From Parcubacteria group bacterium (GTDB lineage: Bacteria > Patescibacteriota > Minisyncoccia > Moranbacterales > UBA11712), in the NCBI GenBank assembly GCA_041659065.1, contig JBAZYY010000001.1:274228-338227 (forward strand): a DNA stretch of 64,000 nucleotides, written 5' to 3'. A program made the position numbers and the translations under genes. This document shows, piece after piece, positions 31,501-49,445 of this stretch; the stretch's first letter is position 1; every line of letters begins with the position of its first letter. The notes beneath the pieces are model-generated. The model did no database searches and had not been told where the DNA came from. It saw only the letters and a list, made by a program, of their open reading frames with translations.

Positions 31501-32178
31501 CTAAATTCTATTTATTTTTTTACTGTATTTCTCCCGCCATTTTTCAATTTCCTTGTGATTTCCGCCCATCAAGACCTCCGGCACTTTCCAATTTTGAAAC
31601 TCCGCCGGCTTTGTGTATTGCGGATATTCGAGATAATTTTTCCGGGAAAAAGATTCTTCTTTTGGAGATTCGGCGTTCCCCAGCGCGCCTGGAATAAGCC
31701 GCGTAATCGAATCCACCACTGCCATAGCCGGAATTTCCCCGCCAGTCAATACATAGTCGCCAATCGAAATTTCTTCGTCCACCAAATATTTTGCCACTCG
31801 TTCATCCACGCCTTCATATCGCCCGCAAATCATAATTAGATTATCATATTTTTTCAGTCTCTTTACATCGCTTTGAGTATATCTTTTCCCCTTGGCGGAA
31901 AAAAGGATAACCCTAGTCTTCCTTAATTTTGAATTTTTAACTTTTAACTTTGAATTTAGAGATTGAAGGCAATCGTAGATTGGTTCAATCTTAAGCACCA
32001 TTCCCGCCCCGCCCCCATACGGCGTATCATCCACTGTCTTGTGTTTGTCAGTCGTATAATCCCGTAGATTGTGAATCTTAATATCGATTATTTTTTTCTC
32101 GCGCGCACGCTTAACAATGCTCTCACTGAAATAAGAATCAAAAATTTTCGGAAAAATTGTGATGATGTGAAAATTCAT
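31501..32178 (-). CDS. trmD: tRNA (guanine37-N1)-methyltransferase
   Basis: MNFHIITIFPKIF...TPYGGGAGMV. The ORF extends to 32205. Confidence 0.85.
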   Translation of the reverse strand: MNFHIITIFPKIFDSYFSESIVKRAREKKIIDIKIHNLRDYTTDKHKTVDDTPYGGGAGMVLKIEPIYDCLQSLNSKLKVKNSKLRKTRVILFSAKGKRYTQSDVKRLKKYDNLIMICGRYEGVDERVAKYLVDEEISIGDYVLTGGEIPAMAVVDSITRLIPGALGNAESPKEESFSRKNYLEYPQYTKPAEFQNWKVPEVLMGGNHKEIEKWREKYSKKINRI

Positions 32179-32182
32179 ATTT

Positions 32183-32707
32183 TTATCTGTAAATTCTGTA
32201 TTCAACTTCCCTCATTGGCTTTCCCTTGGCGTTTTTGCCTTCAAATTCCTGAATCACAACGCCGCCCAAACGTTCCGGTATTTTTCTGCTTGCGATATTA
32301 TCGACCACGACCGGATATTTAAGATAGTCATAATCCAGGTTCTCATCGGCCCATTTTTTTATGGCCGCGATGGCTTCTTGACCGTATTTATTTCCATGCG
32401 CGGATTTTTTCAGCCAAATTCCCAGTTCCGGATTTTTTTTATTAAGATCATGCAGGCCGGCACAGCCGAGAAACTCTTTGCTATCCCCCAGCAATACGAC
32501 AAACTGCAGATTGCTTCCGCTTTTCATTTCCTTCAGAGATTTGTTTATGAAATCTTGAGTCTCCGCGATCTCCGCGGGTGACTGAGGAAACATGTGGATA
32601 GCAATTTCATCAGTAAACTCCCTGAAAATAATTTCGGCGTATTCCAAAGATATTGGTTCCAGTAATAGTCTGCCAGTTTTTAGCTTAATTTTCAATAGAT
32701 CTTTCAT
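32183..32707 (-). CDS. GNAT-family N-acetyltransferase
   Basis: GNAT fold (RimJ/RimL-like). Confidence 0.6.
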   Translation of the reverse strand: MKDLLKIKLKTGRLLLEPISLEYAEIIFREFTDEIAIHMFPQSPAEIAETQDFINKSLKEMKSGSNLQFVVLLGDSKEFLGCAGLHDLNKKNPELGIWLKKSAHGNKYGQEAIAAIKKWADENLDYDYLKYPVVVDNIASRKIPERLGGVVIQEFEGKNAKGKPMREVEYRIYR

Positions 32708-33254: not shown

Positions 33255-33265
33255 AGGTTTTTTTA

Positions 33266-33350
33266 TCCCCCGCCGAAATTACGTATTTCCTGTCCGCCTA
33301 TGGATGAAAATACGTATTTTTCTCTCCTAAAGTTCGAGTTTAGGAAAGCT
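33266..33350. repeat. short (deletion-derivative) copy of island intergenic module: CCCCCGCCGAAATTACGTA...AAAATACGTATTTT + 3' hairpin
   Basis: Shares the 5' box and the CCGCCTATGGA..TACGTA tail with copy A. The hairpin TCCTAAAGTTCGAGTTTAGGA lies at 33324-33344. Confidence 0.7.
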
Positions 33351-33376: not shown

Positions 33377-33925
33377 TTATGTCTTATATTTTTCTTTTTT
33401 TTCGTCGATTTTTTTCTTCATTTCTTTCAGCCGGCCTTCACAGCGCGCGAGCGTTGGAGCCACACCATAGGCTACTCTCAGAGCATTGAAATGATTCAGG
33501 ATCACGTGGGCGTCCATCACCTTGGGATCTTCGACCTCGTGTTTTAAATTATTCACCCGGTAAATTTTATTATTCTCTCCCACCAAGAACGTATAAAGTT
33601 TTTCTCCTACGGCCCTTGATTTCCCGATTTTGATATTAAACCCTTTCCGGTTGGCCAAAAGGCATGTCATCGCAGATACCGTAAAACAATTCCAGTTGGC
33701 TAATTTGCTGCCGTTGAAAAGCGCCTGGATATTTTCTTTTTCATCGCGCATAAAGTGCTTGATCTTATCAAACAGTTCAGCTTCGTCGACGTTTTCTATC
33801 CCGCCCTTTCCAAGGTATTCATCAAAATTATTCTCCAATTCGTCGATAATCGGACCGATACTTAATCCATCCTCAAGTTGTTCGGAATATGTTTTTTCTT
33901 CGAGAGTTTCTTTTATTTTTTCCAT
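33377..33925 (-). CDS. hypothetical protein
   Basis: 182-aa ORF preceded by repeat module copy A and followed by hairpin H1. Confidence 0.5.
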   Translation of the reverse strand: MEKIKETLEEKTYSEQLEDGLSIGPIIDELENNFDEYLGKGGIENVDEAELFDKIKHFMRDEKENIQALFNGSKLANWNCFTVSAMTCLLANRKGFNIKIGKSRAVGEKLYTFLVGENNKIYRVNNLKHEVEDPKVMDAHVILNHFNALRVAYGVAPTLARCEGRLKEMKKKIDEKKEKYKT

Positions 33926-33943
33926 ATTTTAGAAAATTATTTA

Positions 33944-34170
33944 TCCCCCGCCGGAAATACGTACCTAAATACGTATTAAAAATCCGCCGTTTTTCTTTTT
34001 ACCCCAACATTGAATGTTGGTAGAGGTTGCATATCCCCACTGTGTCATAATCATACGGCCGTGTTTAAGTGATACATTTTCGTTTTGGATATTTGTCTTT
34101 ATTCATTCCTGCCGGAATTATATAATTCTTACCCGCCTATGGAGGAAGTTACGTAATTATATTTTTATTC
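33944..34170. repeat. long intergenic repeat module copy A (~225 bp)
   Basis: About 90% identical to 38924-39150. Starts with TCCCCCGCCGGAAATACGTA and ends with CCTGCCGGAATTATATAATT...GTTACGTAATT. Internally contains GTATCA...TATAAT(minus)...TGATAC. Confidence 0.85.
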
Positions 34171-34533
34171 CGACAAAGAATCGGTGGCCAAATTTGGGGC
34201 CCTGCTCCTCTCTGATTATTTCTAGATCATTTTCCGATTCTAAATAACTTTTTACGTTTTCGATATCATCGCCCTTTGGCAGAACATCAACCATGATATC
34301 AGTCATTTCATGCGGAGAATTCTCCATATCAATGACAAAGATTGAATCGGTGACTAAGACTTTCAGCTCTTCTCTTAGTTTTAAAATATTTCTCGCTTCT
34401 CTTCCTTGATTGTTTGTTGAGCCGTCTCAATATCTTTTGACGTGTCGTCTTCGCCAGTCAAGCCTTTTATCCTTTCGGCTTCCTGCAGAGATTTTTCGAG
34501 TGAATATTGTTCCATATAATTTTTTGTTAATTA

Positions 34534-34584
34534 TCCCCCACCGGAAGTACCTGCCCGAAATGCTTTTCAAGGCAGGCGGGCGTA
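34534..34584. repeat. 51-bp direct repeat (left) flanking Fic module
   Basis: TCCCCCACCGGAAGTACCTGCCCGAAATGCTTTTCAAGGCAGGCGGGCGTA; 48/51 identical to 36842-36892. Contains an internal CCTGCC..GGCAGG stem. Confidence 0.85.
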
Positions 34585-34602
34585 TTTGAATGCGTAATCG
34601 CA

Positions 34603-34625
34603 TTCCTAAAGTTCGACTTTAGGAA
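34603..34625. repeat. conserved 3' hairpin TTCCTAAAGT-TCGA-ACTTTAGGAA (overlaps Fic stop codon)
   Basis: 10-bp perfect inverted repeat with no U-run. Same family as 33324, 37655, 39128 and 39264. Confidence 0.8.
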
Positions 34626-35554
34626 TGTTTAAAAGCTTTATTTAACTCCCTGGAAAATTCTCTGACAGCTTCAATATTTAGATTGAGGCTGTGGCCCAAG
34701 ATATCCCTTGTCATCTGCGCTCTCAACTCTTTTTTCTTCTTCTCAAGATTGTTTTTGATATTGTCAGGCAATTCACTTTGTTTCATCAGCATACCATTGT
34801 TATCCATTGGATGACCATATAGTTTTCTTTCTTCTGGTGACATCAGGTCATATGCAGCCAGAAATCCAATTGAATCCAGGTCAAATCCCCACGACTCGCC
34901 TTCCAGCCGGACATTAAATTCATTGTTAACAAAAGCCAAGCTCAGACCTCTTCCTCTGAGCTGATTCGCAAACCAGCCGTAATTGACCACGTCGTGATAG
35001 GTATCTATCTTCATATTCCTTTCGATCAAAATATTTTTGAGATCCTGTTGAAGCGAAGCAGCTTCTTTTTGAATGTCTGGAGAAAACAAAAAATATACCA
35101 GCCTTGCTGTTCTCCCATTTCCATCCGCAAAAGGATGCGTATATATAATCAAGTTATACATTGTGAGGGCAATGGCTTCATTTTTATTGGGATGATCTCC
35201 ATTTGCGATCACTTTCATTTTCTCAAATGTTTCCCGAAAAATTTCATTTTTGTCTTCCATGTCTGGCGGCATGAGATTCACCAAATCGTCGTACCAACCA
35301 TCTACCAGCTTTACCTTTTTGTTTAGAATTTCTCTCTTTGGTGGCTCAATGTCGTTTATTATTCCATTCGTTCTTTTCATGAGATCCAGAAACCGCTCAA
35401 AATCAGAATTCCGAATCAGCTCGATATATACTTCGCTGCTACCCATGTCCCGTTCTCCAACGGATCTTTTCATGAATGTATAAATTTTGTCCGCCCCCCG
35501 ATTTTTCCTGTCTGCAGACTCCTGCTGCTGCTCTTGAAAGTCCTCCAATAACAT
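34619..35554 (-). CDS. Fic/Doc-family protein (AMPylase-type toxin-like)
   Basis: Canonical Fic motif HPFADGNGRTARL (HxFx[D/E]GNGRxxR). Confidence 0.8.
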   Translation of the reverse strand: MLLEDFQEQQQESADRKNRGADKIYTFMKRSVGERDMGSSEVYIELIRNSDFERFLDLMKRTNGIINDIEPPKREILNKKVKLVDGWYDDLVNLMPPDMEDKNEIFRETFEKMKVIANGDHPNKNEAIALTMYNLIIYTHPFADGNGRTARLVYFLFSPDIQKEAASLQQDLKNILIERNMKIDTYHDVVNYGWFANQLRGRGLSLAFVNNEFNVRLEGESWGFDLDSIGFLAAYDLMSPEERKLYGHPMDNNGMLMKQSELPDNIKNNLEKKKKELRAQMTRDILGHSLNLNIEAVREFSRELNKAFKHS

Positions 35555-35611
35555 GTCAATTGAAATTTAATTATCTAATAACGAAAGCAAGGAAATCTTA
35601 TGCTGATATAC

Positions 35612-36493
35612 TCATCCCGTCGCGATCGGCTTCAAGGGTACAATATAATAACTTAGTTTTTCATGACCAATATCCTCATCTTCGATTCTTGTATCAATCG
35701 TGCGCCTCATCTGACTGATTTCAAGGCGAATTGCCTCTCTTATCCTTTCTGGTGTCGCGTGTTTTAAAACAGACAGGCGAAGTTTCTCTTCATCTTCATT
35801 TGAAAAATCAAGTTCTTCCTTTGAAATCTTGTTGAGCACTTGAAACCACAATGCAATTTCCTTTATTGGCGAATCATCTGATGATCTTTCAGGATGCTCC
35901 AACCTTATGACAACAGCTTCATCGTGCCTCGCGTATTTTTTCCAGTACTTTTCAAAAAAAGCTAGGATAGCTTGCTCTTCTTGTGGTTGCAAATTTTTGC
36001 GTCCGTATTTCAATTCCTCTTCGCTTCTGTTTTTCCATTTTTCTATCCGCATTTTCAAATATTTGAGAGCATCTTCATAATTTCTGTTTCTGAAAGACTG
36101 CTCGTGTGAAAATTTCGAAGTAAACTGGTCAAACCATTCAGGTGAACCTTCGGCATAGCTATAAGCGGCTTCCGCATCTCCCGTAACAAATATCTTGTCC
36201 TCACTATTCAGCTTATACCACCCGAAAGTCTGCTCACTTTCACCGATTCGCTTCATTATTGAAATCATTTCTTCAATTTCGTTGCACTCAAAATCTCTTC
36301 TCTCTCTGCTTAATCCATGCTCCCTGATGCCCTCAAGCGCACTGAGATTCGTTCCGTGAAAATAAATTTCCATCACGCTTTGCAAAATGCGTTCTGCGAT
36401 GACCAATGATCCTTCAATATTTTCACCGAATTTATTTCCTATGATCCGCTCTGCAAGTTGGATATATACATCCGTAAGCCCGTAGCTATTCAA
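35612..36493 (-). CDS. hypothetical protein, co-operonic with Fic
   Basis: 293-aa ORF, 57 bp upstream of Fic. Confidence 0.5.
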   Translation of the reverse strand: MNSYGLTDVYIQLAERIIGNKFGENIEGSLVIAERILQSVMEIYFHGTNLSALEGIREHGLSRERRDFECNEIEEMISIMKRIGESEQTFGWYKLNSEDKIFVTGDAEAAYSYAEGSPEWFDQFTSKFSHEQSFRNRNYEDALKYLKMRIEKWKNRSEEELKYGRKNLQPQEEQAILAFFEKYWKKYARHDEAVVIRLEHPERSSDDSPIKEIALWFQVLNKISKEELDFSNEDEEKLRLSVLKHATPERIREAIRLEISQMRRTIDTRIEDEDIGHEKLSYYIVPLKPIATG

Positions 36494-36822
36494 GCCTTCG
36501 CTTTTTCCGCCCCATTTGGATATTCTCGAAATTGCGTCTTTTTATTGAAATTGATATTCCCAATGACATCAGGGATATAAGCGGACTCCTTTCCATCCCC
36601 GGTTATGGAAAGTGCGCTCAAGCAGGCTGAAACGGCATGCCTCAGGGCAAGCTTATCCTCACATCTCAAAAATATACCCTGAAACTCCTTCTTCTTCAAG
36701 ATGAGGGGATCTCTGATTGAGTCATTTGAATTTTTCTCTCCTTGATTTGAAGATCCACTTTCTTTTTTCTTCACAGTAGGAGCTCTTGACAGACTTTCTT
36801 TTTTATCAAAAATGTTTCCCAT
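36490..36822 (-). CDS. hypothetical protein (first gene of Fic operon)
   Basis: 110-aa ORF overlapping the next gene by 4 nt (translational coupling); island module lies upstream. Confidence 0.45.
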   Translation of the reverse strand: MGNIFDKKESLSRAPTVKKKESGSSNQGEKNSNDSIRDPLILKKKEFQGIFLRCEDKLALRHAVSACLSALSITGDGKESAYIPDVIGNINFNKKTQFREYPNGAEKAKA

Positions 36823-36841
36823 AATTGTTGCAATAAAAATG

Positions 36842-36892
36842 TCCCCCGCCAGAAATACCTGCCCGAAATGCTTTTCAAGGCAGGCGGGCGTA
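36842..36892. repeat. 51-bp direct repeat (right) flanking Fic module
   Basis: TCCCCCGCCAGAAATACCTGCCCGAAATGCTTTTCAAGGCAGGCGGGCGTA. Confidence 0.85.
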
Positions 36893-36924
36893 ATTAATTA
36901 GGTGATTTTTTTGATTCGTAACAT

Positions 36925-36975
36925 TTAGCTTAGAGAGCATTTATTGTGTCATAATCATACGACCGTATTATTGTG
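36925..36975. repeat. partial copy D of long repeat (GTGTCATAATCATACGACCGT...)
   Basis: Aligns to the TGTATCATAATTATACGGCCGTGTTTA core of copies A, B and C. Confidence 0.6.
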
Positions 36976-36981
36976 ATGCAA

Positions 36982-37539
36982 TTATCTTTTGAAAAAATGC
37001 CCTTTAAGGGTGGCTTCATTGTCGATGCTTGTGGTAGTGACTATCCTGACGTAGGGACCGGCCGAATAGAGCGAAACCAATTCCTGAATGGGTTTTTCGA
37101 ACGGATATGGTGAAACAAAGACGCTATGCTGGAGCTTCAAAAATTTGAGTGTCCGCAAATGCTCGCGCAAAATATCACGGAACAGCCGATTTTTCTCAGG
37201 AATGTCAAAAAGGACAAGTCGCCATTTTCCGTCCCAGCGCTTCGGTTTTTTGAATCTAATGGAACTCCCCAGGAGACTCAATATCTTTGCCTCTCGTCTG
37301 CCTCTTGTCGTCAGAACCAATCTAAAAGATCCGTCAGGCAACTTCTTCTCTTCAAGCAGCTTCTCTAAAGACAAACGGCGCAAAGAACGGTTGAAATTGC
37401 GCTGGTCTATTTTTTTCCATTCTGACCGCAGCATGCGCAACGTCCGATAATATTGCCGGGGAGACCGGGAAAAACCAAGGGCGAATCCGCCTGAAAGGCT
37501 GAGGAGTATTTTCTTTTGCACCGGGCCGAATTTATACAT
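36982..37539 (-). CDS. PaaX-like putative transcriptional regulator (wHTH + Cas2-like-fold C-terminal domain)
   Basis: KRWDGKWRLVLFDIPE...LRTLKFLKLQHSVFVSPYP resembles PaaX_C. The N-terminus is basic and wHTH-like. Confidence 0.45.
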   Translation of the reverse strand: MYKFGPVQKKILLSLSGGFALGFSRSPRQYYRTLRMLRSEWKKIDQRNFNRSLRRLSLEKLLEEKKLPDGSFRLVLTTRGRREAKILSLLGSSIRFKKPKRWDGKWRLVLFDIPEKNRLFRDILREHLRTLKFLKLQHSVFVSPYPFEKPIQELVSLYSAGPYVRIVTTTSIDNEATLKGHFFKR

Positions 37540-37542
37540 ATT

Positions 37543-37650
37543 CTCATTGTATCATAATTATACGGCCGTGTTTAGATGATACATTTTTGTTTTGGATATT
37601 TGCCTTCACTCATTCCCGCCGGAATTACGTAATTGGTTACGTAATTCCCC
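37543..37650. repeat. long repeat copy C (3' two-thirds), with two AATTACGTAATT-type palindromes
   Basis: CATTGTATCATAATTATACGGCCGTGTTTAGATGATACATTTTTGTTTTGGATATTTGCC...CCCGCCGGAATTACGTAATTGGTTACGTAATT. The minus strand gives TATAAT 17-22 nt upstream of the PaaX-like ATG. Confidence 0.8.
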
Positions 37651-37654
37651 TGAA

Positions 37655-37675
37655 TCCTAAAGTCCGATTTTGGGA
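37655..37675. repeat. 3' hairpin TCCTAAAGTCCGATTTTGGGA (degenerate copy)
   Basis: Same family; lies immediately after the stop of the PRTase-like gene. Confidence 0.6.
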
Positions 37676-38904: not shown

Positions 38905-38923
38905 ATTTTTTGTTTAAAAATTT

Positions 38924-39150
38924 CCCCCCCGCCGGAAATACGCAATCGAATACGTAATAAAAAATCCGTCGTTTTTCTTTTTACCCCGACATTGAATATT
39001 GGTAGAGGTTACATATTCCCATTGTATCATAATTATACGGCCGTGTTTAGGTGATACATTTTTGTTTTGGATATTTGTCTTTATTCATTCCCGCCGGAAT
39101 TACGTAATTAAATATGTATTTCTTTTATTCCGAAGTTTGACTTTAGGAAC
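38924..39150. repeat. long intergenic repeat module copy B + hairpin TTCCGAAGTTTGACTTTAGGAA (39128-39149)
   Basis: About 90% identical to copy A over about 200 bp. Contains the AATTACGTAATT perfect palindrome. Confidence 0.85.
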
Positions 39151-39263: not shown

Positions 39264-39286
39264 TTCCTAAAGTCGGACTTTAGGAA
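39264..39286. repeat. 3' hairpin TTCCTAAAGT-CGGA-CTTTAGGAA
   Basis: Perfect 9-10 bp inverted repeat, the last copy at the island/R-M boundary. Confidence 0.8.
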
Positions 39287-39568: not shown

Positions 39569-39736
39569 TTATCTGTCACGCCAAACATATATATAGCCGG
39601 GAGGCGCCGGGGGCTTAGGTGGTTTTGGAGGTTTGGGCGGCCGCGGTGGACGAGGTGGTCTTGGTGGTCGCGGAGGCTTTGGCGGTTTTGGCGGAACCAA
39701 TGGACCCCGTGGATCTTTTGTTAATTTCCATGGCAT
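39569..39736 (-). CDS. 55-aa proline-rich (PP[KR])n repeat peptide
   Basis: MPWKLTKDPRGPLVPPKPPKPPRPPRPPRPPRPPKPPKPPKPPAPPGYIYVWRDR. AAGAAAGGAGGTGA Shine-Dalgarno sequence lies 8 nt upstream of the ATG. Not in the ORF track because it is under 60 aa. The listed plus ORF 39542-39724 is its antisense artefact. Confidence 0.6.
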   Translation of the reverse strand: MPWKLTKDPRGPLVPPKPPKPPRPPRPPRPPRPPKPPKPPKPPAPPGYIYVWRDR

Positions 39737-39969: not shown

Positions 39970-41415
39970 TTATTTAATCGCCTTTTCAATAATCTCATCA
40001 ATCTTTTTCCTCTCCACTTCGATTTTTTTCTTCATTTCCTCTTGCTTGTCCAGCTCCGCTTTGATTTCATCAACGATTTTTTGCTGTCGCTTTATGTCTG
40101 GAATTGGTAACTCGAAATCATATAATTCTTTCGAAGAGATTTTTACCATTGTTTGGTTTTTTCCTTTAGCGGAATACTTGAAATAAATTCTTCCAATAAT
40201 AGAGTTGAACGCATATGCTATATATTCTTTATTTATCTCATTTTCATCAAATTTTATTTTTATCATTAGATCTGGATAAATAAATTCTTTGTCTTCACTT
40301 TCAACTTTTGCCACAGCTGCTAATGCAACTAGCCCTAGCGTGTTCCCTCGACTTACAAAAAAATCACCGTTTTGGACAAAAAAATCTCGGCTATTATTTC
40401 TTGTTTGTTGTGTATATTTAGGATTGCCAAACGTCATTTTCCCATTTTTCTGAATTGAATCTATTCCAAGAATCGCCTGCCCACCTTCATCCTCATTGCA
40501 TTCAGGTGACCATCCATTTTTTGTGCTTTTAATAAATTTTCCCAAAAAATCAATACTATCATTGTTTTTGTAAAGTTCACCCTGAACTCGTTCAAGCTGA
40601 CTCCATCTGTAGCTAGATCTCAAATTGTTGTTTTTAAAATCGAGCAGTGACAGATCAATATAAAATTTTCTATCATTATCAATCTTATGAATTTTTTCCA
40701 AATCAAACCCAAACTCGCGAGCAAAGACCTTGTTCATAGCTTCCTGCGCAGGAGAAATTTGATTTTTCAGCTCCTTGATTTTATTCTCAATCGGTTCAAT
40801 CTGAGAAATAATTTCATTTTCGAGTTTCTCCAGCTTATCAATAGCAGCCTTACTAAATTTCAAATAAAATAAATCATCTTCCTTGAGAGTCGGATAGCCT
40901 TTCCCCTGTCTTGAAATCGCCATTAAGTCATTATAGAATATTGTTCTGAAAGCATAATAGAATATTTTGTTTAATTTCCTTGGTTTCAAGTTGATAAAAG
41001 CGGTTGTGTAAAAATAATCTTTATTTTTCTCATCAACAAAGACATATTTCCTTAAATTCGGTCTGACTTTTGCCAATAGGATGTCATTCTCGTTGGATTT
41101 TTGTATGTCTCCCTTCTCTATTTTTTTGAAATAATCAGCGACCAACTCATTTATATTGGAAAAGTTCAATTTTTCCGGCTCAACGTCTCCCTGTTTTGTC
41201 ACATTTCCGATTTCGGCATAATAAAAATCATCATCTAGGTGGTCTATCAAATCCATTCTTTCTTTTTTGGTTGAGTTTACTATTTCAAATAAATCCCTGA
41301 ATGAGTATCTTTCTTGCCTCTCATTTTTATTAAAATCGGCAAAATCAACGTCGAATCTATTCGACGCTTCTTTCGCTAATTCCAGAAAATCAATTGCGAA
41401 TTGTTTTAGCGGCAT
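39970..41415 (-). CDS. hsdS: restriction-modification specificity subunit (HsdS-like, two TRDs)
   Basis: Two variable TRDs separated by conserved coiled-coil regions; the C-terminal RQQKIVDEIKAELDKQEEMKKKIE is typical of HsdS/BcgIB. Confidence 0.8.
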   Translation of the reverse strand: MPLKQFAIDFLELAKEASNRFDVDFADFNKNERQERYSFRDLFEIVNSTKKERMDLIDHLDDDFYYAEIGNVTKQGDVEPEKLNFSNINELVADYFKKIEKGDIQKSNENDILLAKVRPNLRKYVFVDEKNKDYFYTTAFINLKPRKLNKIFYYAFRTIFYNDLMAISRQGKGYPTLKEDDLFYLKFSKAAIDKLEKLENEIISQIEPIENKIKELKNQISPAQEAMNKVFAREFGFDLEKIHKIDNDRKFYIDLSLLDFKNNNLRSSYRWSQLERVQGELYKNNDSIDFLGKFIKSTKNGWSPECNEDEGGQAILGIDSIQKNGKMTFGNPKYTQQTRNNSRDFFVQNGDFFVSRGNTLGLVALAAVAKVESEDKEFIYPDLMIKIKFDENEINKEYIAYAFNSIIGRIYFKYSAKGKNQTMVKISSKELYDFELPIPDIKRQQKIVDEIKAELDKQEEMKKKIEVERKKIDEIIEKAIK

Positions 41416-41417
41416 AA

Positions 41418-43007
41418 TTATTTCTCAATAAAATCAATGAATTCTTTCTTCTTATCTTCTGTTAATTTTCCTGATTTCAATTGGTTAAGAATTTCCAGTG
41501 GTTTATCTCTTTCCTTTTCATCGAACTCAACATATCTTTCCAATGTATCTGGAAATTTTTTAATATCAATAGTAAAAATATTTTTATCATCAAATATTTC
41601 TTTATTCCTTTCTTTGTGTTCTTCGTTTTTGTCGCCATCCCCATCAAATAAAACACTATGTTTAATACCAAATTCCAAACATAGACTCATAAACCTTGGT
41701 ATATTCCACTTGCCGCCACAATCAATAATATAAACATTCGCGTCTACATTAAAATTTTGAATTAGATAGTTAAGAAAAACTTTGTCAGTTGAACCTTCAA
41801 CTAATATAACCTTATCAACAAAAAACATTGTATTTCTATCCGGATTTAGCCAAAGAACAAAACTAAAGATGTCTTCCTCTGTCTTGAGCTGATCTAAAAA
41901 ATTTTGACTGGCTTTGAATATTTCCGTTTCAGTATTTTCTTTCACATAGCGAAAGATGCTGAAAAGTGCGTTGCTCTTCGTGGTAATAAGATTTGGTGAA
42001 TGTGTACACAAAAATATTTGACTAGATCCAGATTTTGCTATTTCTTCTAAATTTTTAAGGAGTTTCTTTTCCTGGTCATAGTGAAGCAATGATTCGGGCT
42101 CCTCATATAGCAATAAAGTAAGATCTCCACTGAATATTTTTTTACTAGCTTTCTTTTTTTTACTTTCAACTTGAGCCCATAATAGCAACAGGCTGTTGAC
42201 GATTGACCTTTGCGCACCTGATCCAAGGGTCAGGGGGTCTTCCTCTTGACCCGTATCCTCAGACAAAAGTTTTAATTTTGAGCCTGAAATAATTATATCC
42301 TCCGGTGTTGGCGGTGAAATATCAATTTGAGATCGCAATCGCCAAGACGAAAGCATTTCCGTTAAACTTTCTTCGATTTCATGCACACTCTTTAAGTTGC
42401 CTTCTCCGCTATCCTTTATAGGACTTTTCAAATCATTCGTAAATTTTTTCACTTCCCTAACCAAATCATTCCATGAATCTAATTCTACTAAAGCTTCAGA
42501 AAGTATTCTGCTTATGAGTTTTGTAAAGATTGAAGATTTTGTTTTCTTTAACTCTTCGCTCAGATCTTTTACTGCTGGAATGTATATTATGTCGCCCAAC
42601 TTTCCCACAGGAACATTCTTATCCCCAAAAAATTCACTCTCTCTTTCCTTTATGATTCCACCTTTAATTTCAAACCCATGAAATTCACCTTTTAATTTTT
42701 CCTTGGTAAATCTCTTAACGACTTTTAGCCTATTATTTGGTAATTTATAAAATTCTGGCAACTGTGAAAACTCTTCTTCATGAAGCTCATATTCTAGGGT
42801 AATTTCGATAGGCGCAGAACTGCAGCTTCGACAAAAATCCTCAACAGTCACATTATAATCAGCATAAAATGCTCGAATAGCATGAATGACTGAAGATTTT
42901 CCCGCATTATTTTGACCGATAAATGTCCAAATATCATCTGTTGGACCACTCAAATTTGCGCTTTTGATGGATCGAAAATTTTTTATTTCAATTTCCTTTA
43001 TCTTCAT
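41418..43007 (-). CDS. OLD-family ATP-dependent endonuclease (ABC-type ATPase + TOPRIM; class 1 OLD / fused PARIS-like)
   Basis: Walker A GQNNAGKSS; Walker B LLLYEEPE; TOPRIM VILVEGSTDKVFL...FDGDGD (E...DxD). Confidence 0.7.
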   Translation of the reverse strand: MKIKEIEIKNFRSIKSANLSGPTDDIWTFIGQNNAGKSSVIHAIRAFYADYNVTVEDFCRSCSSAPIEITLEYELHEEEFSQLPEFYKLPNNRLKVVKRFTKEKLKGEFHGFEIKGGIIKERESEFFGDKNVPVGKLGDIIYIPAVKDLSEELKKTKSSIFTKLISRILSEALVELDSWNDLVREVKKFTNDLKSPIKDSGEGNLKSVHEIEESLTEMLSSWRLRSQIDISPPTPEDIIISGSKLKLLSEDTGQEEDPLTLGSGAQRSIVNSLLLLWAQVESKKKKASKKIFSGDLTLLLYEEPESLLHYDQEKKLLKNLEEIAKSGSSQIFLCTHSPNLITTKSNALFSIFRYVKENTETEIFKASQNFLDQLKTEEDIFSFVLWLNPDRNTMFFVDKVILVEGSTDKVFLNYLIQNFNVDANVYIIDCGGKWNIPRFMSLCLEFGIKHSVLFDGDGDKNEEHKERNKEIFDDKNIFTIDIKKFPDTLERYVEFDEKERDKPLEILNQLKSGKLTEDKKKEFIDFIEK

Positions 43008-43655: not shown

Positions 43656-46010
43656 TCACCACTCGATTTTTCGCATATAATCCAACGCGGTTTCCATTTT
43701 TCCATCATCCACCAAGACCTTCCCATCTTTGTCGATTCGATAGAGCTCGTTCGGCATTGGTTTTTCGCCGCGCTTGGTACGCTTGTAACCGACGTTTTCC
43801 ACTTCCGCCATGAAAATTTTGTAGTTGAGCTCGCGGGCCACTTCGCCAAAAACCCACCAGGTGTTCACGAAGCCAAAAACATCTTTCGTATCGTTGTCAT
43901 ACTTGCAAAGATCTTCGAGTTCCGAGGCGTATTTTTTTGCCAATTCTCTCGCAGCAAGCTTCTGATCATCTTTCTCGACGTAATTTTTGAGCATCCTGGA
44001 GAGAACTTCTTTTTCTTCTTTTTCCTTCAATCCTTTGACTGACGGTAATTTATTCCTATTTTTTCCGTTCAAATATACTTCGGCCAAATTTTCACACCTA
44101 GTCCTAAGATTTCCCCATTCGTTTCCATATTTTTTCCAAAGTTCGTCCCATTTTTCAATTTCCGATTTGGCTTTCTTCTCGGCGAAGAGCAAGCTCGTTT
44201 TGGTCGAAGTGAATGGTTCAAAGGTAACTTGCGGGAGTGACACCACCGCTTTGACTTTGAAATATTTGTAGATAAAAAGACGGATATATTTGTTTTCTGT
44301 CGTGTCGAAAACGCTTTCCGGCAAAACCGCGCCCAACCGGCCGCCATCTTTGAGCAGTTGATACCACCTTTCCACAAAAAGATTCTCACTATTTTTCTTG
44401 CCGCCGAAAATAAATTCTTCTTTGACATTGTCTTTGGTGTCTTTATCCAAATCGACGCTAAATGGCGGATTGGTCACGATAATGTCAAATTGCTCATTCA
44501 CCTCTTTGTCAAAATATTTCTTGTCACTTTTTGATTGTTGCAGCTTGTTGGAATAGAAATTGAAAGGCAAAAGCCCGTCTTTCACATAGATATTGGCCGA
44601 GCCATCGCCATGCAAAATCATATTCACTTTTGTAGCTGTCCCCAAATTGAAATTTATATCCGTTCCATAAATATATTCCTCCGCCCATTGATTTTCCAGA
44701 TTATCGGGATAGAACCAGCTTTGCATCTTGTTTTCAATATTTCTGGAATTTTCTATTCCATCCTTGAATCTGCGCTTGATGTTTTCAGTGATAAACTTCA
44801 TGTATTCAATCAGAAAAGTTCCACTGCCGGCGCTCGGATCAATTATGTAAGGAAGTTTTTGATTATTATTGATGTTGGAAATGGCCAGTTTGTCCGCCTG
44901 CAAGCCCCACAGCAAAAACCTCACCACATTTATATGGGTAAAAAATTGTCCTTTTGTTTGTTTGAATCCGTCGCGAATTATTCCCTCAAAGAAATCTCCC
45001 AGAATATCTTTTCCGTTAAAACTATTCTTCCCGTCCACGAAGGAATAGCCCTCTAGTTGCGACACTGCGTACTTAAGTTTAGAGAGAGGAAATTTGTTTT
45101 CATCGACGATATAGGATTTTTTTAATTTGACTTCGTCCGTGATTCCCAGCCTCTCCTGCAACGCTCTTCTGTAAATCTCGTTTATTCTTTCAAAAAGCTG
45201 TTCGTTGGTTTCAAAACTTTTTCCGTCTTCAAAAGAAAATATTTGAAATCCATATTTTTCTCCTTGTCTTCGCTCACTCTCATCCTGGATTTTGGCCAAA
45301 ATGATATTGACCAGCGAAGAAAAAATATCATTATCATCCGTGCCGCCGCCGCCCCAAAGCACATTGTGCAAATTCTTACTCAGAGAATCAAGATTTTCGT
45401 GAGTAAAGCTTGTTTCCAAATCTTTCTCTCCTCCTTTCACATACGGCTCTTTTTGTGCTTTGCCATATCTGACCGGCAGCTCGTCCGCAAAATCGCGCAC
45501 TTCCTTCCAGGAGCTGAAGGAGGAAAATTTTTCATAGTCAATCAAAATGCACTTGTCTTTTATTTCATTTTCTATTATTTCAAAAGTATAGAGCGTGAGA
45601 TATTTAACTTTCTTTCCTTGGCCTTGTTCTTGTGAAGCTAGATTAAAAAGCTGTTTTTCAATAACCTCATCTTTGTCTTTTTCATAGTCTTGAGGACTTT
45701 TGAGTTCAACATACAAAAATGCGTCGCCTTTGTCATCCCTGACAATGATATCAATTCTCGGTTTGTTTACTTTTGGTCTTCCGATATCGTATTCTTTTTC
45801 AAGTTCGATGTTTTCCGGTTTATATCCGAGTTCATTTACTAATTTAGCAAGAATATATGCTCGAACAATTTCCTCGTCGCCTTTGAATTTTTCGATTTTC
45901 CAACCCTTTATTTTTTCGGAATATTTGACTTTTTTATTTTTAAAATCATAGGCTTCAACAACCTTTATTTTTTGACTATCGAGACATTTTTCAATTAATT
46001 GTGTATTCAT
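43656..46010 (-). CDS. hsdM: gamma-class N6-adenine DNA methyltransferase (HsdM-like) with N-terminal HsdR_N-like PD-(D/E)xK domain (BcgIA/type IIG-like architecture)
   Basis: Motif I IIDPSAGSGTFL; motif IV IVTNPPFSV. The N-terminal RIDIIVRDDKGDAFLYVELKSP resembles the HsdR_N nuclease motif. The ORF extends to a GTG at 46055; the first ATG is at 46010. Confidence 0.7.
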   Translation of the reverse strand: MNTQLIEKCLDSQKIKVVEAYDFKNKKVKYSEKIKGWKIEKFKGDEEIVRAYILAKLVNELGYKPENIELEKEYDIGRPKVNKPRIDIIVRDDKGDAFLYVELKSPQDYEKDKDEVIEKQLFNLASQEQGQGKKVKYLTLYTFEIIENEIKDKCILIDYEKFSSFSSWKEVRDFADELPVRYGKAQKEPYVKGGEKDLETSFTHENLDSLSKNLHNVLWGGGGTDDNDIFSSLVNIILAKIQDESERRQGEKYGFQIFSFEDGKSFETNEQLFERINEIYRRALQERLGITDEVKLKKSYIVDENKFPLSKLKYAVSQLEGYSFVDGKNSFNGKDILGDFFEGIIRDGFKQTKGQFFTHINVVRFLLWGLQADKLAISNINNNQKLPYIIDPSAGSGTFLIEYMKFITENIKRRFKDGIENSRNIENKMQSWFYPDNLENQWAEEYIYGTDINFNLGTATKVNMILHGDGSANIYVKDGLLPFNFYSNKLQQSKSDKKYFDKEVNEQFDIIVTNPPFSVDLDKDTKDNVKEEFIFGGKKNSENLFVERWYQLLKDGGRLGAVLPESVFDTTENKYIRLFIYKYFKVKAVVSLPQVTFEPFTSTKTSLLFAEKKAKSEIEKWDELWKKYGNEWGNLRTRCENLAEVYLNGKNRNKLPSVKGLKEKEEKEVLSRMLKNYVEKDDQKLAARELAKKYASELEDLCKYDNDTKDVFGFVNTWWVFGEVARELNYKIFMAEVENVGYKRTKRGEKPMPNELYRIDKDGKVLVDDGKMETALDYMRKIEW

Positions 46011-46047
46011 AATTTTTTTATGCAAAGTCCTAGGGCAGCGTGGTAAT

Positions 46048-46080
46048 ACTATCACTATATCACTATTATTATATCACTGC
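46048..46080. promoter_or_regulatory. three TATCACT direct repeats upstream of the MTase gene (candidate operator)
   Basis: TATCACT at 46050, 46058 and 46072, between the AbrB-like gene and hsdM. Confidence 0.35.
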
Positions 46081-48974: not shown

Positions 48975-49445
48975 CTATTTTTCCTCAGTTTTCTCAGACT
49001 TTTCTTCAGGTTTGGTTTCTGCCGGCACTTCGCCGCTGTCTTTTTTTATTTCCTCTTCCGCCTTTGCAGGTTCAACCGAGGTTTGCTCGCTAGCAGTCTC
49101 CTTCTTTTCTGCCGGGACGTCTTCTTTCTTTACTCCCCCGCCTGCCTCGTTTTTTGAAGCGTCTTGGGCAGGAACCGGTTTCTTCTTGATTTTGATGGCT
49201 CGCTTGGAACCTTTTATAATTCCGGCTTTGATCAAAAGATTATGAGCGCTGTCTGAGCATTGCGCCCCTTTTTCTATCCAGTATTTTACGCGATCTGTTT
49301 TGAAATCCCGTTCTTTTGTCTTGGGGTTGATAAACCCCAGCACTTCAATAAATTTTCCTTTAATAGGAGCTGTATGCTCTGTCACGACCATGCGGAAAAA
49401 AGCACTATTTTTCTTGCCCCGGCGAGTTAATCTGATTTTTAGCAT
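48975..49445 (-). CDS. rpsP: 30S ribosomal protein S16 with Lys/Glu-rich C-terminal extension
   Basis: MLKIRLTRRGKKNSAFFRMVV...GFINP. Confidence 0.9.
   Translation of the reverse strand: MLKIRLTRRGKKNSAFFRMVVTEHTAPIKGKFIEVLGFINPKTKERDFKTDRVKYWIEKGAQCSDSAHNLLIKAGIIKGSKRAIKIKKKPVPAQDASKNEAGGGVKKEDVPAEKKETASEQTSVEPAKAEEEIKKDSGEVPAETKPEEKSEKTEEK

Follow-up and report, generated by a model that had tools for sequence, protein, structure and literature searches.

Fic proteins are recognised by the signature HxFx(D/E)GNGRxxR, their classes I–III are defined by an inhibitory motif, (S/T)xxxE(G/N), and ~10% of the signature-bearing proteins have no inhibitory helix (PMC3667792). Here, we report on a locus containing a divergent Fic gene in a Parcubacteria metagenome-assembled genome (MAG) from NCBI, which we analysed in a 64-kb stretch (hereafter the window) of a 339-kb contig. 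In this locus, three open reading frames (ORFs) of 110, 293 and 311 aa, the last of which is Fic, are the only ones found between two 51-bp direct repeats, which an initial annotation read as suggesting a mobile cassette of Fic and two partner genes. Such an arrangement recalls integron cassettes with their attC sites, with which it shares co-oriented, short, unrelated and mostly orphan genes, related spacers that are partly palindromic, and toxin-like genes. However, this is an analogy of layout only, since there is no integrase here, no R'/R'' core was recognised, and the repeats, which include a promoter-like module, are found on the 5' side of genes, at 12-21 nt from start codons. The locus also resembles an autoregulated PaaX-type regulon, in that the array contains a gene with a PaaX_M domain, behind the same palindrome-bearing promoter-like module as other units. 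Here, too, there are differences, the identity between copies being much higher and longer than an operator needs; the boxes described below are presumably unlike the E. coli PaaX operator. Our reading, to which we give a probability of roughly 0.55, is that the two repeats are paralogous, locus-specific 5' leaders, which would act as shared cis-regulatory elements, possibly under the control of the PaaX-like protein, and not the ends of a mobile element.

When computed anew, the two repeats (34534-34584 and 36842-36892) were found to be 48/51 identical (94.1%), in agreement with the initial annotation, within a weaker likeness (84%) that spans 70 nt (34529-34598 versus 36837-36906). They share an exact 33-nt core (34550-34582 = 36858-36890), of which there are two occurrences in the window and 0.00 expected (100 shuffles), and the CCTGCC...GGCAGG stem that had been noticed in each copy indeed belongs to the minimum-energy structure predicted for the two of them. 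The genes that matter here, from ~1.5 to 64 kb of the window, are all on the minus strand, and it is in this direction that the locus has to be read: the PaaX-like gene is followed by a diverged promoter-like module, the first leader copy, a split gene encoding an ADP-ribosyltransferase-like (ART-like) protein, Fic with a hairpin across its stop codon, the second leader copy and a 44-aa ORF. The right copy (36837..36906, minus strand; core 36842-36892) is therefore the 5' leader of the ART-like/Fic operon, in which the hairpin CCUGCC...GGCAGG precedes a box, GUAUUUCUGGCGGGGGA, that ends 20 nt short of the ATG at 36822, where the 110-aa ORF begins. A leader of the same type, the left copy (34529..34598, minus strand; core 34534-34584) is found 34 nt past the stop codon of Fic and ends 19 nt short of the ATG at 34515, where the 44-aa ORF begins.

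The two copies are members of a larger family. The ~80 nt upstream of five start codons – those of a NUDIX gene (33254), a 182-aa ORF (33925), the 44-aa ORF (34515), the 110-aa ORF (36822) and a membrane protein gene (38904) – can be aligned into a single family, whose 3' box, GTAYTTCYGGYGGGGGA, is invariant. All of them follow the same plan, that is, a hairpin and then the box, the G-run of which precedes the ATG by 12-21 nt in all five; in the two repeat copies, the stem-loop passes without a gap into the box GUAYUUCYGGYGGGGGA. A hairpin is predicted in every leader, with its 3' arm ending at the GUA that opens the box, and what varies is its sequence, with ACGUA-type palindromes in three leaders and CCUGCC...GGCAGG in the two repeat copies. 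The latter (94% identical) are far closer to each other than either is to the other three, which are found upstream of the NUDIX gene (33255..33328, minus strand; a different hairpin, the same box and 12 nt to the ATG), the 182-aa gene (33923..34000, minus strand) and the gene for the membrane protein, which is 110 aa long (38906..38983, minus strand). We considered that a 31-nt hairpin might have been inserted into a TACGTA box and dropped this idea, as all five leaders hold a 13-31-nt segment between two half-sites.

The box is confined to this locus. When the 17-nt version, TACGTAWTTCCGGCGGG, was searched with up to 3 mismatches, 7 matches were found against 0.14 expected, all of them minus-strand and located at 33.2-39.1 kb (33269-33285, 33947-33963, 34108-34124, 36845-36861, 37615-37631, 38928-38944 and 39090-39106). 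An nhmmer profile of the five leaders, run over the 64 kb, recovered, besides the five themselves, three partial boxes (34108, 37615 and 39090) and nothing else. These partial boxes sit just upstream of copies of the promoter-like module, one of them before the PaaX-like gene. The boxes upstream of this module form overlapping palindromes, AATTACGTAATT and ATTCCGGCGGGAAT, which are operator-like in look. The box is not a generic ribosome-binding site, because the genome is nearly free of Shine-Dalgarno sequences, a GGAGG-like motif being present 3-12 nt before the start codon of only 3/58 minus-strand genes in the window. The possibility that the G-run is itself a Shine-Dalgarno sequence was dropped on the same ground, and also on account of its distance from the ATG (12-21 nt) and its confinement to five genes.

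The leaders are one ingredient of mosaic intergenic regions, confined to 33.2-39.4 kb, of which the other two are the promoter-like module and a hairpin that follows stop codons. The module has four copies, two of which were scored as TAAACA-17-TACAAT with an upstream TG, one of these being directly before the PaaX-like gene. This last copy, together with its upstream box AATTACGTAATTCCGGCGGGAAT (37535..37634, minus strand), shares 95% identity with 39010-39109 and 89% with 34045-34120. A diverged copy with an extended -10-like TGnCACAAT (36945..36990, minus strand) is found directly after the stop codon of the PaaX-like gene and upstream of the right leader. Within the three closely related copies (34045-34120, 37535-37634 and 39010-39109), an inverted repeat, TGTATCA-N22-TGATACA, surrounds the hexamers. 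In two of the promoter-like copies, the homology continues for 5 nt into ATGTA, which in the third copy is the start of the PaaX-like gene. The PaaX-like gene itself (36982..37539, minus strand) encodes 185 aa with a PaaX_M/Cas2-like domain (PaaX_M 9e-22), is preceded by box and promoter-like module, and is directly upstream of the ART-like/Fic operon. As for the third ingredient, the palindromic hairpin C (TCCTAAAGTTCGACTTTAGGA; 34604..34624, no strand assigned) overlaps the Fic stop codon, and the hairpin TCCTAAAGTTCGASTTTAGGA is found downstream of stop codons at 33325-33345, 34604-34624, 37655-37675 and 39265-39285, with a degenerate copy near 39140. It has no U-run, unlike a classical terminator. 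A terminator scan flagged neither 51-bp repeat copy, in which the hairpin is followed by UAYUUCYGG without a U-run.

It follows from this mosaic that the Fic unit is far from alone in being bracketed by direct repeats. Other gene groups are bracketed by repeat pairs of 177 nt (33945-34120 / 38926-39102, 90% identical), 100 nt (37535-37634 / 39010-39109, 95%) and 76 nt (34045-34120 / 37552-37627, 89%), so that such bracketing is the rule in this 6-kb stretch and not a trait of the Fic unit, which is flanked on both sides because the next unit begins with the same type of leader. The initial annotation was right that the two copies are clearly duplicates of each other, but it had overlooked that they are minus-strand leaders upstream of ATGs and that similar pairs bracket other groups of genes.

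We propose that the leaders and boxes would be cis-regulatory sites that bring unrelated accessory genes – among them a candidate AMP-transferase (Fic) and the ART-like gene, which may be co-transcribed – under common control. The most likely controller would be the PaaX-like DNA-binding protein that the locus encodes, with the palindromic boxes AATTACGTAATT / ATTCCGGCGGGAAT as its targets, and the two near-identical copies could represent the latest duplication, or gene conversion, in the leader family. Several points weigh against this proposal: (i) we infer from sequence both that the leaders regulate and which protein controls them, (ii) no promoter-like module precedes the left leader copy, (iii) the sense and antisense strands of the leaders fold about equally well, so that a role at the DNA level is not distinguishable from one at the RNA level, (iv) the locus comes from one population only (100% identical in four assemblies), which offers no evolutionary test of conservation and (v) the CCUGCC variant of the hairpin occurs in two copies only, both flanking the ART-like/Fic unit, a geometry that equals that of a single crossover of a leader-bearing circle.

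This last point leads to a different history, in which a unit made of a leader, the ART-like gene and Fic recombined into a pre-existing leader before the 44-aa ORF, so that the leader became doubled into direct repeats that could also mediate excision of the unit, which is in essence what the initial annotation had suggested. We consider this rather unlikely, even though it would sit well with a pair of repeats that resemble each other far more than the other leaders and have nothing else between them, with the location of the unit in a variable low-GC island splitting rpsP...trmD, and with the occurrence elsewhere of Fic and of the ART-like gene in separate settings, some of them phage-like or conjugation-like, which does suggest that these genes are mobile over evolutionary time. 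However, none of the ORFs scanned between 32.2 and 51.9 kb has a recombinase, transposase or resolvase Pfam domain, and the genes at 29-32 kb are MurG- and FtsW-like (read by eye from translations) and TrmD-like (PF01746), not recombinases, which leaves ~29-52 kb with no integrase, transposase or resolvase domain. Neither terminal inverted repeats nor a short target-site duplication was found at the Fic unit, same-family repeats occur at other intergenic sites where they bracket other genes, and both copies, 19-20 nt upstream of an ATG, fall within the family of five leaders.

The same history would also predict an empty site, for which other assemblies were searched. Contigs of Logan SRR18595301, ENA ERZ27249449 and JGI 3300014208 are 100% identical and have the same arrangement, and neither the PaaX-like gene joined to the 44-aa ORF via a single leader nor a circular junction was found in the contigs carrying the flanking genes, which represent one clonal population. 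In JGI metagenomes, the hairpin-plus-box pattern returned the two known copies alone. Two of the Logan SRR18595301 contigs (L001 and L005) end inside the 33-nt core, which we rejected as evidence of excision since a k-mer assembler would produce this effect at any 33-nt repeat. In GTDB genomes, the looser pattern CCTGCC-N12-18-GGCAGGCGGGCGTA gave 76 matches and 0 in Parcubacteria, the source genome evidently not being a species representative; these matches are either due to chance in GC-rich genomes or to an unrelated palindrome resembling a miniature inverted-repeat transposable element (MITE). The latter, a nested palindrome of ~130 nt with the core CCTGCCCGCCAGTGCCAGGCGATGGCAGGCGGGCGTA and no Rfam match, has several copies in Desulfobacterales, Anaerolineales and an archaeal MAG (loci L027, L030, L034, L037, L038, L049, L057, L068, L072, L079 and L081). 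Among viral contigs, neither Fic nor the 293-aa protein had a relative, and the promoter-like module and the box were without a match.

An effect at the RNA level, in which hairpin and G-rich box would act in the mRNA (in translation initiation, as a standby site, in processing or in attenuation) and not as a DNA operator, is compatible with shared cis-regulatory leaders, and we hold it to be rather improbable as the actual mode of action. It would explain why the distance to the ATG is held to 12-21 nt in all five leaders, why leaders occur both after the promoter-like module and between cistrons, after hairpin C, and why the position of the hairpin is kept when its sequence differs. Folding of 100-125-nt leader segments against 200 shuffles is also in keeping with it for three of the five, two of which were beaten by only 0 and 2 shuffles (z -3.3 and -2.7) and a third by 4/200 (z -2.25). 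The right copy, however, folds no better than shuffles (z -1.15), antisense strands fold equally, and the three boxes upstream of the promoter-like module would be outside the mRNA. There is no match to the Rfam 15 covariance models at either repeat copy (E <= 1), two chance snoRNA hits being found elsewhere in the region, and the independent leader sequences are too few for a covariation test.

It is quite unlikely, in our opinion, that the repeats are functionless remnants, left as neutral by-products of recent segmental duplication or gene conversion in a fast-evolving island. Identities of 89-95% over stretches much longer than a binding site do have this flavour, as does a promoter-like copy to which the opening 5 nt of the PaaX-like coding sequence are attached, and the frameshift in the adjacent gene fits decay. 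Neutrality sits poorly, however, with a box that is invariant at many positions in otherwise diverged leaders, with the constrained distance to the start codon and with a hairpin that was kept although its sequence was replaced. A bolder view, which we rate as equally unlikely, is that the 33-39 kb region is a recombinase-independent cassette array, in which unrelated accessory, toxin and defence genes would be gained, shuffled and lost through homologous recombination at a common 60-230-bp leader/promoter module. This module would also bring each of them under one PaaX-like regulator, and the Fic/ART-like unit, which lies between the two most alike leaders, would be the newest arrival.

The leaders aside, the unit that they flank differs from its initial description as three genes. 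No other ORF is indeed present between the repeats, and the reported 4-nt overlap between the first two ORFs is real (36490-36493), but these two ORFs are one interrupted gene, which reduces the unit to two genes. Residues 42-103 of the 110-aa ORF (36490..36822, minus strand) align with the N-terminal region of intact homologues, and the 293-aa ORF (35612..36493, minus strand) contains the YFHGT...Y...SPEWF core. In a tblastn search with the intact homologue P0007, residues 36-92 match the 110-aa frame and residues 106-371 the 293-aa frame. The break is at AAU AAA AAG, AAUAAAAAG (36538..36546, minus strand), where a -1 shift restores a 403-aa protein, and this conceptual protein aligns as a single segment across the junction with P0005 (E 4e-65) and P0007 (E 8e-45). 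P0005, P0006 and P0007 are single intact ORFs across the homologous site, and intact homologues have FNNKD or FNNKK, encoded by A-rich codons, at the position of the frameshift. This is not an assembly error because the frameshift is identical in all the other assemblies covering the site (L003 and L004/L087), and the loss of one A in the A-run is its simplest cause. The sequence A AAA AAG is a site of -1 ribosomal frameshifting in dnaX and in IS3-family elements, and the break here is exactly at an in-frame U AAA AAG where a -1 shift restores the frame. However, the first base is U and not A, which makes the site near-canonical, and the closest intact homologues are without a frameshift.

What the reconstituted gene encodes is probably a very divergent member of the ADP-ribosyltransferase superfamily. 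Word-indexed protein searches returned just 3, 1 and 6 matches, with none that were related for the 293-aa ORF, and it is an exhaustive protein search with this ORF that revealed its family, with ~190 cluster representatives (50% identity), most of them 350-390 aa long, in which the match starts near residue 100-130. No Pfam or NCBIfam domain is above threshold in the gene product. Similarly to the PARP/Tpt1(KptA) clade, the protein has a YFHGT-x6-I-x3-GL segment, and a profile of 40 family members searched against PDB matched, over YFHGT...I...GL, Tpt1/KptA RNA 2'-phosphotransferases (E 0.002) and PARP14 (E 0.1), in line with the recurrence within the family of sub-threshold Pfam matches to PTS_2-RNA (4 members) and PARP (2 members). 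The protein is mostly helical with large insertions, and Foldseek with a confident AlphaFold2 (AF2) model (pLDDT 91.4) gave matches that are only local, to KptA/Tpt1 (69 columns at ~2.1 A, E >= 1) and also to DarT1, PARP15, pertussis toxin and phage PARP/DarT entries. The differences from this clade are that no curated threshold is reached, that similarity over the whole model is low (TM 0.12-0.2) and that the third catalytic position (Glu) is not conserved. As to the catalytic residues of the superfamily (H-Y-E or H-H-h), H46 is invariant in the family and Y113 nearly so, but E191, at the usual position of the catalytic Glu, is not conserved. The SPEWF motif, including E119, is nearly invariant, and we know of no counterpart to it in the PARP/Tpt1 clade.

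Relatives of the ART-like gene (L086, L089-L096) are found in varied contexts without Fic, one of them by a peptidase, and there are hints that the family travels with mobile elements. At five of these loci (L089-L091 and L095-L096), one lineage is next to a type IV secretion system (T4SS) coupling protein, SIR2 and HAD_SAK_2, and the other is between a serine recombinase and a phage terminase.

The Fic gene (311 aa; 34619..35554, minus strand) is divergent, although the active-site motif is intact, as had been claimed. The signature is present as HPFADGNGRTAR at residue 140, which is invariant in two Fic relatives, and the Pfam Fic domain PF02661 scores 32.7 bits for a cut-off of 24 (E 1.4e-7). 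Similarity to solved Fic proteins is limited to residues 99-157, just two relatives were found (33% and 29% identity), and the AF2 model is so poor (pLDDT 66.7, with the active-site loop < 50) that its Foldseek matches are meaningless. As in class I FicTA systems (VbhT/VbhA, EcFicT/EcFicA), there is a full signature and a same-strand gene immediately upstream. However, that gene is a frameshifted ART-like gene of ~400 aa and not a small antitoxin, a regular-expression scan for (S/T)xxxE(G/N) gave no match in the Fic, 110-aa or 293-aa ORFs, and the loci of the two Fic relatives (L006-L009), which are on short contigs, have no ART-like neighbour. Since the pairing is absent in relatives, several of whose contigs are short, it is not a conserved module, and neither a FicTA-type relation nor the earlier suggestion that the upstream genes might encode an inhibitor, antitoxin or specificity partner is supported. 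The effectors IbpA and VopS are examples of Fic proteins that have no such helix. Like proteins of this kind, Fic in this locus has a canonical active-site motif and no detectable inhibitory motif, but it is dissimilar to them outside residues 99-157, and a diverged inhibitory helix may be present. A literature search on Fic, ART and Parcubacteria combined found nothing.

The wider setting is a variable or defence island. The genes rpsP (encoding S16) and trmD are usually near one another, and here (48975-49445 and 31501-32205, respectively) they are separated by ~16.7 kb of lower-GC DNA that holds the repeat-rich array. The interval also contains an HsdS-like gene (39970-41415), an OLD-family nuclease (41418-43007), an N6-methylase/HSDR_N fusion (43656-46055) and TspO. 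At the other end of the Fic unit, the 44-aa ORF (34381..34515, minus strand), which the left leader copy precedes, was annotated by gene callers in other assemblies. A 55-aa ORF (39569-39736, minus strand) consists almost entirely of PPK/PPR repeats (PPKPPKPPRPPRPPRPPRPPKPPKPPKPP) and is preceded by a rare perfect Shine-Dalgarno sequence (AAGGAGGTGA).

If our interpretation is true, this is an ordinary finding, in which adjacent units share a duplicated leader and Fic is one more divergent member of its family, and it offers a clean example of how paralogous upstream regions can pass for direct repeats at the ends of a cassette. What is new here (and we would rate this as low to moderate) lies in the divergent Fic, in the ART-like family, which is unannotated, and in the unusual family of leader and promoter repeats that is specific to this locus of a genome of the candidate phyla radiation (CPR). 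The ART-like family (~190 clusters) is uncharacterised and without a Pfam domain, it has a PARP/Tpt1-like nucleotide-binding signature, and here it is in an operon with a Fic lacking a recognisable inhibitory helix. To our knowledge, almost nothing is known about transcriptional control in CPR bacteria, for which the eight copies of the box and several of the promoter-like module, beside a PaaX-like regulator, would make a directly testable regulon.

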